Sequence record: ON210138.1
Direction: 5' to 3' (one strand)
Source of the DNA: Escherichia phage EC106
DNA: 64,000 bases
A program made the translations under genes and the position numbers. Below, one piece after another: positions 1 to 33,435 of this stretch (positions are counted from its first letter, which is position 1; every line of letters begins with the position of its first letter). The notes under the pieces were generated by a model. That model did not search any database. It was given only the letters and a program-made list of their open reading frames with translations, and was not told the DNA's origin.

Positions 1-47
1 GGGGAGTAAGAGGGGGAGAGGGGTTGGTCTGGCTCTCTATAAAAACC

Positions 48-232
48 TACCTGCACGATTCTAAAATGATTTTTCTTGCCCGACCTGAGCGGGGTCTGCA
101 CGTTTTGAAAATGAAAAAGCTCTTTGGAGATTATCTGCACAGTTTGAAAATGAATTTTCTCTTTGGAGTTCAAAATTCTCTCTACAGATTTCTCTACAGA
201 ACTCTACCTGCACAATTCTGAAATGAAAAAGC
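48..232. repeat. array of four direct repeats, core CTGCAC-N2-TTYTRAAATGA, in ORF-poor left end
   Basis: copies at 51-69, 96-114, 135-153, 208-226; two copies followed by TCTTTGGAG; CTCTACAG duplicated at 182-200; G-rich tract at 1-37. Confidence 0.55.
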
Positions 233-299
233 CATCCTTACCTGAAAAATTTACCAGATAAGAAAGGCTTAGGCTATTGTGAATATCCTACAGAGTTTC

Positions 300-1085
300 T
301 TAGTTCTTTGCGTCTAAGAAGGTTACTTCCGGTGAAGAGAAAATTTCCTCAACATCCTCATCAGTTCTTGCATAGATATATGTATCTGCATCACTGCCAA
401 ATGTTACTGCAATCCTGTGATTGCTCTTCGACAGGTGGGTAACTAGAGCGTTACTTAGAGACATCTTTTCAACCGGAGGGTTACTTTGATGTATCTTACC
501 TTTTCTTCGTCTGAAGAGGGTAACTGCGTTATCTGTGAACACAACTACACCTGCAAAGTGTTCTGGTTCACAGTAGTTCTTCCAACCTGAGAGTAACTTG
601 TGGTACATCTCTCCTTCATAGACATATAGATAAACATCTACACTCTTCATCACCTGATTGATGATAACTGTGACGGCTTGAGGGTCAAGTCCACCGATAC
701 CTGCACCAATCATAGGTAAACCAACTTTCTTCAACTGATTGACTTCACAGTATCTGTTAAGCTGTTTCAAAGATGACTCTAAAGCACTGTATCGGGCATC
801 TTTACCAGTCTTAAGCTGAGTGTAAAGGTTAGCTATACGGCCTTGTTTTAAACGTGCTACAGAGAAATTGCCTAGTAAATTTTCACATGGTTTGTGGCCT
901 ATACCACCTGCATACAGATAGACTTCTGTATCGGTCTCATATGCTTTTGGGTAAAGTTTAGAAATCTTGTCAGCAATACCTGCACCCATTAAGTTCATAC
1001 AGTTACAACCGTGACCAATAATATCAAACTTACCCTTATCAAATGCGGAGAAGATATCCCCATTGATGATTTTTACAATACCCAT
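300..1085 (-). CDS. macro-domain (ADP-ribose binding/processing) protein with uncharacterised C-terminal extension
   Basis: N-terminal INGDIF, DIIGHGCNC, MGAGIA and later GLPMIGAGIGG motifs match macro-domain glycine-rich loops; C-terminal ~100 aa unassigned. Confidence 0.6.
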   Translation of the reverse strand: MGIVKIINGDIFSAFDKGKFDIIGHGCNCMNLMGAGIADKISKLYPKAYETDTEVYLYAGGIGHKPCENLLGNFSVARLKQGRIANLYTQLKTGKDARYSALESSLKQLNRYCEVNQLKKVGLPMIGAGIGGLDPQAVTVIINQVMKSVDVYLYVYEGEMYHKLLSGWKNYCEPEHFAGVVVFTDNAVTLFRRRKGKIHQSNPPVEKMSLSNALVTHLSKSNHRIAVTFGSDADTYIYARTDEDVEEIFSSPEVTFLDAKN

Positions 1086-4872: not shown

Positions 4873-6093
4873 TCAATGTTTAACTAACATGGTTTTAATG
4901 TGTGGAAGGATTCTGTTCACCTTCTGCACATTCTTCTCTGTGTCTTCTATAAAACATACTATATTAAAGTAAGGCAGGATGCAAGACTGAATCATCCTCA
5001 CTTTCAAACTTTCTGCACTTATAGAGTTAGTCCCAAAACCACGCATAAAAAGCATGTAGTCATGCTCTGTGTTATGCCTTAAAAACATCTCAGTAGGTAT
5101 TCTCTGAGATTCACCTCTCGCTGTCAAGAGGCCAATGGCAGCATGATTAGCAATTGCATCAATGATATTGAAAACATACGTTGGTTTTGCTCTTACAGAG
5201 TCAAGAAGATTGGTATACTGTGAAAATGAACCGTCTGTCAATTCCGTTGAGCAATCTTCGTGATTAAAATTTGTAAGAACACCATCAATATCTGCTAAGA
5301 TGAGATTCCCTTTTTCTACAAGGTCTTTATTGACTATGACTAAGCTATCACGACTCACACCTATAGTTTGTCCAGTCTCTTTATCAACAATGTTCACAAT
5401 TGGTTCTGATGTGTGGAACTCTTCAAGTGAACATATAACTTCTCTTGCAGTGTCTTCAAAATCCCTGCACTGTTCTGGAGTCCATACACAGGAATCAAGA
5501 CCTAACTCATGAGGATGTAAGTCATAAGCATGACACAGGACTTCATCAGACTTTTTAATTTTTTCATGGTTTACCTTAGAAATGTTTGTTGCAAATTCAC
5601 ATTGAGCAATAACTTTCATGTTGTTATAGACATCTTGAGAATACTTCTTAGCTTTAGGGATTCTGTACGAATACCCAGCATTATATGATGCTAAAACTTT
5701 TTGTAAAGTCTTCTTTGACTTTGGCTGACCATGCACCTTTGTCCAAAACTCAAGCTCTTTGTGAGTTTCCTTCGCAGCATAATCAAAGTCTCTTAAGAGT
5801 TTCTTTTTAGCCACATTAGGGCTAATTTTGTTACGCTTTACAACAGTCTTCAAGTGATTCTGGAAAATACCATAATCGTGTGTCTTTTTATTCTCTACCT
5901 TCAGACCTAACTCTGACTCTTGTAAGGCTATAGCAGCTAGAGTGATACCCCAACCTTTACCCATGTTATTCTCACCATACTGGTAAGCTTTTAACATGTT
6001 TACTTTTTGGCTAATTGATAGCTCTGGGCAGTCAACTGCATAAGATAAGTGTGCTGTAAACATTAAGCACAAACCTAGAATCAATTTCTTCAT
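4873..6093 (-). CDS. secreted lytic transglycosylase (SLT) domain protein with C-terminal HAD-like phosphatase-type domain
   Basis: signal peptide; SLT motifs QESE, GIFQ, SYNAGYS; C-terminal DIDGVLT (HAD motif I) and IEDTEKN. Confidence 0.55.
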   Translation of the reverse strand: MKKLILGLCLMFTAHLSYAVDCPELSISQKVNMLKAYQYGENNMGKGWGITLAAIALQESELGLKVENKKTHDYGIFQNHLKTVVKRNKISPNVAKKKLLRDFDYAAKETHKELEFWTKVHGQPKSKKTLQKVLASYNAGYSYRIPKAKKYSQDVYNNMKVIAQCEFATNISKVNHEKIKKSDEVLCHAYDLHPHELGLDSCVWTPEQCRDFEDTAREVICSLEEFHTSEPIVNIVDKETGQTIGVSRDSLVIVNKDLVEKGNLILADIDGVLTNFNHEDCSTELTDGSFSQYTNLLDSVRAKPTYVFNIIDAIANHAAIGLLTARGESQRIPTEMFLRHNTEHDYMLFMRGFGTNSISAESLKVRMIQSCILPYFNIVCFIEDTEKNVQKVNRILPHIKTMLVKH

Positions 6094-6154
6094 TGGTTCT
6101 CCTGTTTAGTTTATCGTGACAACAATTATACAGTACTCTGCACAAAATACAAAT

Positions 6155-6180
6155 AAAAAAGGCCGCCGAAGCAGCCTTTT
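6155..6180 (-). terminator. rho-independent terminator, possibly bidirectional
   Basis: GGCUGC-UUCG-GCGGCC hairpin flanked by A-run and T-run. Confidence 0.6.
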
Positions 6181-8272: not shown

Positions 8273-9379
8273 TTAAACGTGTGCTGTCTTGGAGATTAAC
8301 TCACCGTGAGAACCAATCACTACACGATACCCACCAGAGCCAGAGTGAGTCTTGATAACTTTACGGTTGCTGTCAACAATCGCAAAAGACTCATAAGCTG
8401 ATACACGCATCTTCATATCGTTGTAATCAGTCGGGACAGATACAACATCTCGTGGGTGGACACGAACTTTCAGGATGGTATCACCTCCAAAACATGATAC
8501 GTACTCCCATGCACCAACATGTAAACCCTGAGAGCAAGTGCGGTTAGGGTCACTGTCAACCATCCAACGAGGCATCTCAACTAGGTTACCCAAATCATTA
8601 GGCACTTTGTGGGTGTGGCTGTCTACCAGAGAACCATCAGCTTTGCTTTGTACCTTTTTCCAGCCGATAATGTAACCTTCTTCATCAATTTCAACATCAA
8701 GGTGAGATATGAAGCCCCAAAGTTGTTCTACAGAACCTTTAGATGGGTTTTCCATCAGTTTTTCGAAGAACATTACAAGTCGTTCAAAACCTTTATCACC
8801 AGTCTTCATCATGTGAAGAATACGGTCAACCAGAGTAGAACGCATCTCAACAGCACCGTAGAATAACTTGTCACCTTTGATTGTGATAGCGCCCTGAGTG
8901 AAGTTTTCGATAGACTTACGAATGTTCATCAGTTCAAAGGCTTTTTTGAACTCACCTTTCACAACATGAACTACAATCTCTTGATAGTTCGGATGAGTAG
9001 ACTCAACAATTTCAGATTCTGAACCATAAGTCATAATTACAGAGTCACCAGTAATCATGTACTCAATCTTGTCATCTTTCTGCATAGCTTCGTGCAGTTT
9101 ATTTACTGGAGCTTTCTGTACAGACTCTTTAACAACCTTTTCAACTGGTTTGCCAGCTTTCTTTTTAAAGGTCTTAGCAACTTGCTTCAAAGTCTTCGTA
9201 GCTGGTGTAGAAGTCACCTTCTTATTTCCTTTTAAGGTTGCTTCATGACGCTCTACAGCACGACCAACTGAACGGGTTGAAGTATTAAATTTCTGTGCAA
9301 TAGCTGTTTTAGTCAGCTTGCCCTCTTTAACCAGTTTGTAAATTTCTGCGTCAATCTGTGATTTAGTTTTAGTAGTCAT
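8273..9379 (-). CDS. rIIB: rIIB-like protein
   Basis: blocks recalled from T4 rIIB: LFY..E.RS.LVDRIL, NPS, CSQGLHVG, KVRVHPRDVVSVPTDYND.KMR. Confidence 0.8.
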   Translation of the reverse strand: MTTKTKSQIDAEIYKLVKEGKLTKTAIAQKFNTSTRSVGRAVERHEATLKGNKKVTSTPATKTLKQVAKTFKKKAGKPVEKVVKESVQKAPVNKLHEAMQKDDKIEYMITGDSVIMTYGSESEIVESTHPNYQEIVVHVVKGEFKKAFELMNIRKSIENFTQGAITIKGDKLFYGAVEMRSTLVDRILHMMKTGDKGFERLVMFFEKLMENPSKGSVEQLWGFISHLDVEIDEEGYIIGWKKVQSKADGSLVDSHTHKVPNDLGNLVEMPRWMVDSDPNRTCSQGLHVGAWEYVSCFGGDTILKVRVHPRDVVSVPTDYNDMKMRVSAYESFAIVDSNRKVIKTHSGSGGYRVVIGSHGELISKTAHV

Positions 9380-33178: not shown

Positions 33179-33435
33179 GTAAGCCTCTTTTAAGTAACTA
33201 TTAAGTTTTAATCTTTTATCTTAACGTATTCTATACGTTATACTTTAAAGCTTTTTAAAAGCTATTAAATAATCTTTTAAGAGTTTTAAAGTATCTGTAT
33301 AGTTAAACTGTTAAGTAACCTTTTAAGTAAAAACCCACTTCGCAAAGATTAACACCTTGTCAAGTACATTGTCAACTTGCTTTTTATAATTTTTTGCAGT
33401 AATGTATGAGGTTAATGATTTTAGAGGGAGTAAAA
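33179..33435. promoter_or_regulatory. AT-rich divergent control region with repeated CTTTTAAG motifs, palindromes and TATAAT element
   Basis: CTTTTAAG at 33187, 33274, 33321; palindrome AACGTATTCTATACGTT 33223-33239; TTGTCA x2 and TATAAT at 33385-33390; SD AGGGAG at 33424-33429. Confidence 0.5.

Follow-up and report, generated by a model that had tools for sequence, protein, structure and literature searches.

Escherichia phage EC106 (sequence record ON210138.1) carries an array of four repeats in untranslated DNA at the start of the 64,000-nucleotide stretch that was analysed here (the window). The four repeats are a real feature of this genome. They point in the same direction and share a two-part core that is confined to this locus, and judging from the sequences compared, no other non-coding feature found at the boundary of the early region of these phages is as well conserved. 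The explanation that we tentatively favour is that the array may be a set of cis-acting, iteron-like recognition sites at which one sequence-specific protein would bind the DNA.

The repeat units and their conservation

The preliminary description of the locus, made from the letters of the sequence alone, had recognized four copies of a 19-nt motif, CTGCAC-N2-TTYTRAAATGA. These copies are present on the plus strand at positions 51-69, 96-114, 135-153 and 208-226, have 0, 1, 1 and 0 mismatches to that consensus, and follow each other with the irregular start-to-start spacing of 45, 39 and 73 bp that had been given. The other details of the description are also borne out: TCTTTGGAG follows the second and third copies (121-129 and 160-168), CTCTACAG is duplicated (180-187 and 192-199), and the beginning of the window is rich in G (20 of bases 1-37, counted by eye, with a GC skew of +0.67 over 1-40). 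At up to three mismatches the 19-nt consensus finds five matches compared to 1.46 expected. As this consensus was composed after the copies had been viewed, its own statistics are weak.

With the help of related phages the core was refined to TGCAC-N6-RAAAT-R-A. The refined core has four exact, co-oriented copies starting at positions 52, 97, 136 and 209, no further exact copy within the window, and none in the 28.5 kb of the relative LMP33 that the window leaves uncovered. A profile of 38 positions, built from the sequences of 31 distinct units and nothing else, was searched against about 92.5 kb. The four units score 29.5-37.1 bits (E up to 6e-8), and the runner-up scores 12.6 bits and lies within coding sequence. 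This sole other weak match, TGCACAAAATACAAATAA (window 6137-6168, E about 0.01), is located in the rII coding region, where the rIIB open reading frame ends at 6093, and is probably due to chance.

Each unit is about 37-45 bp long and consists of TGCAC, six A/T-rich bases and RAAAT-R-A. The two invariant blocks of the core are approximately one helical turn apart, and in the A/T-rich spacer between them the T at position 9 is conserved. Beyond the core, information resides in a C at position 0, R6, T9, Y10, an A/T run of four bases, C24 and A32, for a total of about 34 nt. The units are nevertheless heterogeneous, their common part being the invariant core of about ten bases and portions of the flanks. 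The coordinates of the units and of the neighbouring features are listed in Table 1.

Table 1. Features at the beginning of the window (positions in the window)
Feature	Position	Strand	Remarks
G-rich leader, variable segment, cut by window start	1..44	+	-10-like TAAGAG at 7-12
Repeat unit 1	48..84	+	core TGCACGATTCTAAAATGA at 52-69; profile 49-84, 29.5 bits; kept in all genera
Repeat unit 2	93..129	+	core TGCACGTTTTGAAAATGA at 97-114, then AAAAAGCTCTTTGGAG; profile 95-129, 37.1 bits
Repeat unit 3	132..168	+	core TGCACAGTTTGAAAATGA at 136-153, then ATTTTCTCTTTGGAG; profile 133-168, 35.3 bits
Spacer with duplicated CTCTACAG	172..203	+	profile detects nothing here
Repeat unit 4	205..241	+	core TGCACAATTCTGAAATGA at 209-226; profile 206-241, 33.8 bits
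Intrinsic terminator hairpin of leftward macro-domain operon	229..270	-	T-tract 219-228
Macro-domain 'phosphatase' gene	300..1085	-	context; array always 3' of gene

The gap of 73 bp between the third and fourth copies is close to twice 37 bp, and for this reason the spacer at 172-203, including the CTCTACAG pair, may be a decayed fifth unit; the profile gives no match in this stretch. In the alignment the spacer contains a semi-conserved TCTnTaCAGA block outside Kolesnikvirus. The 8-mer CTCTACAG itself is found at 17 sites in the window compared to 2.7 expected from shuffles (for example at 9251, 17650, 23509 and 55605/55632). With an order-2 Markov model no other 8-mer is more strongly over-represented (z = 9.9), but z is only 2.8 with a maximal-order model. 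Most of these sites are intragenic, are on either strand, and have no common context.

More than 250 phage records match the first 3 kb of the window with 90-99% identity. Nearly all of them belong to Felixounavirus, a genus of the subfamily Ounavirinae, and their hosts are Escherichia, Salmonella, Shigella and Citrobacter. The source of the window, the G+C content of which is about 39%, is a Felixounavirus. The whole untranslated gap containing the array is syntenic across Ounavirinae. Three or four units, in which the core is invariant and its two blocks are always 6 bp apart, are kept in Felixounavirus, Suspvirus, Mooglevirus and Kolesnikvirus (the latter exemplified by the Erwinia phages phiEa104 and L030), while the flanks diverge. 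The possibility, raised in the preliminary description, that the motif would prove unconserved in related genomes is contradicted by this retention of the units across genera. The distant contig L031, the macro-domain protein of which is 37% identical, retains the units, and the synteny of the array and the macro-domain gene holds at 37-40% protein identity (L031, L104 and L138). In a scan of metagenomes, 15 of the 120 pattern matches were Ounavirinae, and the array was positioned 3' of the macro-domain gene in all 15. The macro-domain protein is only 40% identical in two of these loci. The 15 matches add no new gene context.

The spacings of the units in the loci compared are 45/39/73, 45/41/75 and 39/37/37 bp, the last being the strict tandem arrangement of the Kolesnikvirus Erwinia phages. 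Individual units can be missing or altered: unit 3 is absent in L021 and L044 and has changed to TACAC in phages of the VpaE1 type, and L042 shows another loss or mutation of a single unit. Such changes are consistent with redundant sites. A further viral contig, L033 (reverse strand), is apparently chimeric in its positions 1-195, the phage sequence being joined at CCCGACCTGAGCGGGG, just before unit 2. By eye, and with no search made, these first 195 or so nucleotides resemble a coding sequence from a bacterial chromosome, which could be mukB.

Outside the subfamily, no related array was found in 72,556 plasmids or in 5,426 E. coli genomes. A scan of 185,579 species genomes gave 42 matches, none of them in Enterobacterales, and these are mostly unrelated tandem or coding repeats. 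Contigs of metagenome-assembled genomes of unrelated bacteria, namely Prevotellaceae, Caldilineaceae, Parabeggiatoa and Ignavibacteriales (L053/L062, L066/L087, L089, L083 and L054/L067/L068), contain tight tandem units of 21-22 bp, each with a TGCAC-N6-RAAAT-GA core, and the copy number reaches 15 or more. The two neighbourhoods that were inspected (L053 and L089) share no gene context, and neither has a toxin gene beside the array. The bacterial arrays may be a coincidence, as any tandem repeat that contains one match registers twice.

Genes and promoters around the array, and the position of the genome ends

The genes of the first 32 kb or so of the window are carried by the minus strand, the first of them encoding a macro-domain 'phosphatase' of 261 amino acids. 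In relatives, the array is found inside an untranslated gap of about 450-500 bp, with the terminator of the macro-domain operon on one side and the first early promoter on the other. The non-coding DNA runs about 220 nt further left in these phages, beyond position 1 of the window, and the G-rich element is therefore truncated by the window start. To the left of the gap there are about 20 small early genes on the minus strand with a promoter-hairpin module of about 87 bp between each. In LMP33 (L001 1-3800), this module contains a GGGGCTTA...TAAGCCCC hairpin overlapping a TTTACA-N17-TAAAGT promoter, followed by AAAGAGCTTTACCACT and a GGAG ribosome-binding site.

The array had been placed downstream of the leftward operon and thus not at its promoter, and this agrees with the presence of a strong intrinsic terminator on the minus strand at 229-270. 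The folding energy of the hairpin is -20.1 kcal/mol for the minus strand, which has the U-tract, compared to -10.5 kcal/mol for the plus strand. The A-run of unit 4 is at the same time the T-tract of this terminator. The counterpart in LMP33 has a stem of 17 bp, the KhF1 and wV8 records annotate the hairpin as a terminator, and the hairpin is retained in different genera while its arms vary. The Felixounavirus hairpin fits the minus strand: it has four G-U pairs, and the plus strand does not have a U-tract. In Mooglevirus the two strands form hairpins of equal stability, and a U-rich tail follows on the plus strand.

Two promoters can be proposed to the left of the units. In relatives, the complete leader reads TTGACT-N17-TAAGAG followed by four G-runs, which form a motif of the G-quadruplex type. 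The TTGACT, just left of the window, and the TAAGAG within it would constitute a putative rightward promoter of the sigma-70 type, and a leftward early promoter, TTGACT-17-TAGTAT, is situated about 115 bp away. The preliminary description had listed the G-rich leader together with the array. The leader is not a universal part of the element, as many Felixounaviruses have an unrelated segment that is not G-rich in its place. The alternative leader, GTGGTAGCCTTGTGAG..., is present in about 16 of the 43 loci compared and replaces the stretch from the spacer up to window position 44, yet it still sets TAGCCT exactly 17 bp past TTGACT, so that TTGACT-N17-TA survives the replacement of the segment. 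The breakpoint between the G-rich leader and the unrelated one (GTGGTAGCCTTGTGAGAAATGGCGACATCCCCACC, JLBYU28 type, L002 3957-4000) is sharp and falls at window 44/45. In Kolesnikvirus, a near-consensus TTGACC/G-N18-TATACT is found upstream on the same strand as the units, followed by the shared GGGGCTGGCT. The conserved TTGACT-N17-TA and the Kolesnikvirus promoter make a rightward transcript across the units plausible. A conserved near-palindrome, CAAGAATTATTTTTCAAT, lies directly upstream of the rightward -35 element (L001 3948-3965; window -52 to -35). It resembles an ARG box with three mismatches and could be an UP element or an operator.

It was also suggested, as one possibility, that the array marks the left end of the genome, in the form of a packaging or terminal-repeat boundary. 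However, the left end is the boundary of the window or contig only; the region is single-copy and internal in about 270 records other than that of KhF1, and the termini of relatives are a different, TGTTAA-rich sequence located elsewhere. Pr103Blw has an annotated direct terminal repeat of 581 bp with copies that are 100% identical, the repeat of UAB_69 is 618 bp long, and that of UAB_Phi87, determined by Bal31 digestion and sequencing, 608 bp. The Pr103Blw and UAB_69 repeats, the two that were compared, are homologous to each other and TGTTAA-rich, and have no BLAST match in the window. The terminal repeats map to the left of window position 1, at a distance of 7.0-7.6 kb in LMP33 and 6.1-6.6 kb in Pr103Blw. 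TGTTAA and CTTGTTA repeats crowd the true terminal repeat and the adjoining 500 bp or so (L012 1-1100; L047 7436-8500), and 13 of them are found in one 500-bp bin of LMP33. In L031 (600-760), about 12 repeats of the TGTTAA type directly adjoin the TGCAC units.

What might speak for a physical genome end here, a direct terminal repeat boundary or a terminase (pac) site, is that several assemblies (the window itself, LMP34, TH10, FSL SP-010 and, from metagenomes, the contigs L020 and L027) begin or end no more than about 200 nt from this point, and that the KhF1 record carries 377 bp spanning the region at both of its ends (L003 1-377 and L008 1128-1500). These breaks probably have other explanations. 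L020, L027, LMP34 and TH10 end inside the G-run, a few bases from the window start, LMP34 (L009) at window position 14. L027 terminates in a Nextera adapter fused to the G-run GGAGTAAGAGGGGG, which points to a break of sequencing or assembly, and the 74-nt end overlap of TH10 (L010/L011) is an assembly overlap. The two KhF1 copies are 89.7% identical and, as the true terminal repeat is exact, do not represent a terminal repeat; they are either an artefact of assembly from mixed templates or the result of a genuine tandem duplication of the array followed by divergence. The breaks are thus probably sequencing or assembly breaks in a G-rich, strain-variable segment and not termini. With three independent determinations placing an exact repeat of 581-618 bp on another sequence 6.1-7.6 kb away, a genome end or terminal repeat at this locus is rejected by the published termini and by direct BLAST comparison, and we give it almost no credence.

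Possible functions of the array

A protein-coding function of the region is just as hard to sustain. Open reading frames exist on both strands (24-221 on the plus strand and 61-213 on the minus strand), and several GenBank records annotate small proteins here (wV8 gp13, Felix O1 ORF31-34, Michonne gp131 and Silverhawkium gp124). The annotators, however, differ in the strand chosen, and the frame is not the same for the four units of a single genome. A 2-nt deletion in wV8 and indels in Michonne and phiEa104 that are not multiples of three mean that the reading frame is not conserved. The would-be wobble positions are invariant, and the frames begin with TTG or GTG and have no Shine-Dalgarno sequence at a usable distance. 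Small open reading frames on either strand were rejected by the analysis of frames in 11 phage loci including the window, in agreement with the earlier view that the repeats are non-coding, and it is hardly conceivable that the region serves to encode a small protein.

A structured RNA was rejected as well. Rfam 15 covariance models run over the whole gap at E up to 10 gave two matches, both at chance level and outside the array. The RNAalifold consensus is -2.9 kcal/mol, with no covariation beyond the terminator, which is the sole consistent helix, and the plus strand folds worse than shuffled sequence (z = +1.2). A general phage promoter motif was rejected on the grounds that the core is confined to this locus.

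We infer that the functional form of the array is DNA rather than RNA. One protein, encoded either by the phage or by the host, would contact two successive major grooves in each unit, in a manner resembling the reading of iterons or operator arrays. A binding array of this kind is suggested by the core blocks one helical turn apart, the A/T-rich spacer, the unique locus, the redundancy of the units and their conservation throughout the subfamily, the last of which would be expected of a core function more than of an accessory one. Iterons or protein-binding sites had been among the first proposals made, and they remain the best-supported class of explanation, although the regular spacing of iterons, about two helical turns, is not found. 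Similarly to the iterons of lambda ori, R6K and pPS10 and to T4 oriE, which have three to five co-oriented direct repeats with an asymmetric core of about 18-22 bp, the array has at least three co-oriented direct repeats of a site of about 17-22 bp that is unique in the genome, lies in a non-coding region beside promoters and tolerates the loss of a single copy. It differs from them in its irregular spacing, out of helical phase, in the roughly 34 bp conserved per unit, and in having no adjacent initiator gene, no DnaA boxes and no marked DNA-unwinding element.

In the primary origin of phage T7, an A/T-rich region follows the promoters phi1.1A and phi1.1B. By analogy, the putative rightward promoter reading into the EC106 array could make the locus an origin of replication that is activated by transcription. 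Felix O1 encodes a T7-like DNA polymerase and a gp4-like primase-helicase (Whichard 2010, PMC3185647). These enzymes, together with the promoter that reads into the array, are the reason why such an origin is preferred among the possible roles of a binding array, but it is a doubtful proposal, and a role as a transcriptional boundary or in regulation of the early region is about equally likely. The likeness to T7 comprises the promoter leading into an A/T-rich non-coding stretch and the presence of the two T7-like replication proteins (PMC3185647). The promoter here would be a host sigma-70-type promoter with a weak -10 element, however, and a four-fold repeat is not known from T7.

A number of observations weigh against a protein-binding array or against its role as an origin. 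The spacing of the units (45/39/73, and 39/37/37 in the Erwinia phages) is irregular and out of helical phase, unlike that of classical iterons, and conservation over about 34 nt is long for the site of a single protein. The units contain no convincing match to the IHF, DnaA, Fis, CRP, marbox, sigma-54 or ArgR consensus, and there is no DnaA box in or adjoining them. The -10 element, TAAGAG, does not have the usual final T. No change of GC skew occurs across the locus, and its DNA is only moderately unstable, being among the top 5% or so of the least stable windows. The least stable DNA and the minimum of the cumulative skew are both found in a divergent intergenic region at about 33.2 kb. This region (33,179-33,405), in which gene orientation and cumulative GC skew switch and the DNA is the least stable at window sizes of 100-200 bp, is a candidate for a more conventional origin, or for divergent promoters. 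A near-palindrome of 27 nt is found at 33240-33294.

The alternative that deserves most attention is that the product of the locus is a non-coding RNA of the plus strand, transcribed from the rightward promoter and displaying four single-stranded UGCAC-N6-RAAAU-RA motifs. As a decoy or sponge, this RNA would occupy an RNA-binding protein or an endoribonuclease. The order of putative promoter, tandem repeats of about 37-45 nt and hairpin matches that of type III toxin-antitoxin loci (PMC5086642), and all units are co-oriented with the promoter. Like ToxI arrays, with their tandem repeats of 34-45 nt, the array has an A-rich motif in each unit, and its invariant RAAAU is similar to the A-rich sites at which toxins of the ToxN family cleave (AA/AU; PMC5086642). 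A phage precedent is known in the pseudo-ToxI of PhiTE (PMC3475682), a lytic phage, in which the array is likewise intergenic. The conservation of each unit along its length, to about 34 nt, the strict 39/37/37 tandem of Kolesnikvirus, and the Mooglevirus hairpin, equally stable on both strands and with its U-rich tail on the plus strand, would also be accommodated. The array would then have the layout of a type III antitoxin without the toxin gene, as pseudo-ToxI does, and the idea survives only if the RNA is a mimic directed at an unspecified partner. Alignment with ToxI and pseudo-ToxI gives no significant similarity (z about 0), and neither the plasmids and E. coli genomes searched nor the Enterobacterales in the species-level scan have a bacterial counterpart. 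The units differ among themselves, unlike the near-identical repeats of real antitoxins; neither a pseudoknot nor a toxin gene next to the array is evident, and no conserved fold is predicted (pseudoknots being outside that assessment). In Felixounavirus the hairpin favours the minus strand and the -10 element is poor. Finally, conservation throughout a subfamily is unusual for an accessory directed against host defence. On balance we regard the RNA as an unlikely product.

The position of the array invites a comparison with the injection stop signal of phage T5, which is a conserved untranslated repeat region (Repeat Region 3) at 7.9% of the T5 genome, beside variable early genes (Davison, bioRxiv 10.1101/866236). 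The array would accordingly delimit, on the inner side, a terminal block of early host-takeover genes, about 6-7 kb long or about 7.5% of the genome, and would pause or gate the entry of the DNA. In Pr103Blw (88,421 bp) the distance from the array to the right end is 6.6 kb, or 7.5% of the genome, and the two elements are both found about 7.5-8% of the genome from one end. Furthermore, the stretch between the array and the terminal repeat is occupied by about 20 small genes that each have a promoter of their own, and a conserved untranslated repeat region adjoins poorly conserved coding DNA, as Davison describes for T5. The T5 signal, however, is inside a long terminal repeat of 10 kb and has DnaA boxes and large inverted repeats; the array has none of these and is outside a short terminal repeat, and there is no report that Felix O1-like phages inject their DNA in two steps. 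An entry gate is therefore improbable. Equally little can be said for the idea that the repeats have no function and are the relic of an old tandem duplication, for instance a minisatellite. Their tandem layout and the possible decayed fifth unit at 172-203 would be expected of such a remnant, but neither the core bases nor the 6-bp spacing change from genus to genus or in L031, in contrast to the neighbouring non-coding sequence and even the proteins, which diverge strongly. A functionless relic is therefore quite improbable.

Implications for the Felix O1-like phages

As a protein-binding array, the locus would be a new and sharply defined case of something familiar, the cis-acting repeat array. 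It is possible, though unlikely, that it is instead a cis element present throughout the subfamily at the inner edge of the early gene block, which either yields an antitoxin-like RNA that titrates a host endoribonuclease or RNA-binding defence factor, or serves as a T5-like gate for staged entry. If either of these were true, the mechanism would be one that is undescribed for these typing and therapy phages.

No published description of the array was found, and the literature searched contained nothing useful on transcription starts or origins in Felixounavirus. The genome paper of Felix O1 describes direct repeats other than these, and according to it the temporal regulation is not understood. 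In GenBank records the locus is filled with hypothetical open reading frames or left blank. The small open reading frames annotated over it in many of these records are probably spurious, and breaks of assemblies in the adjacent G-run should not be taken for genome termini.

Felix O1-like phages are the classic typing phages of Salmonella and are common in cocktails for therapy and biocontrol. As the array occurs only once in the genome and its core is sharply defined, it offers an immediately testable handle on the start of replication, the timing of transcription and the entry into the cell in these phages.

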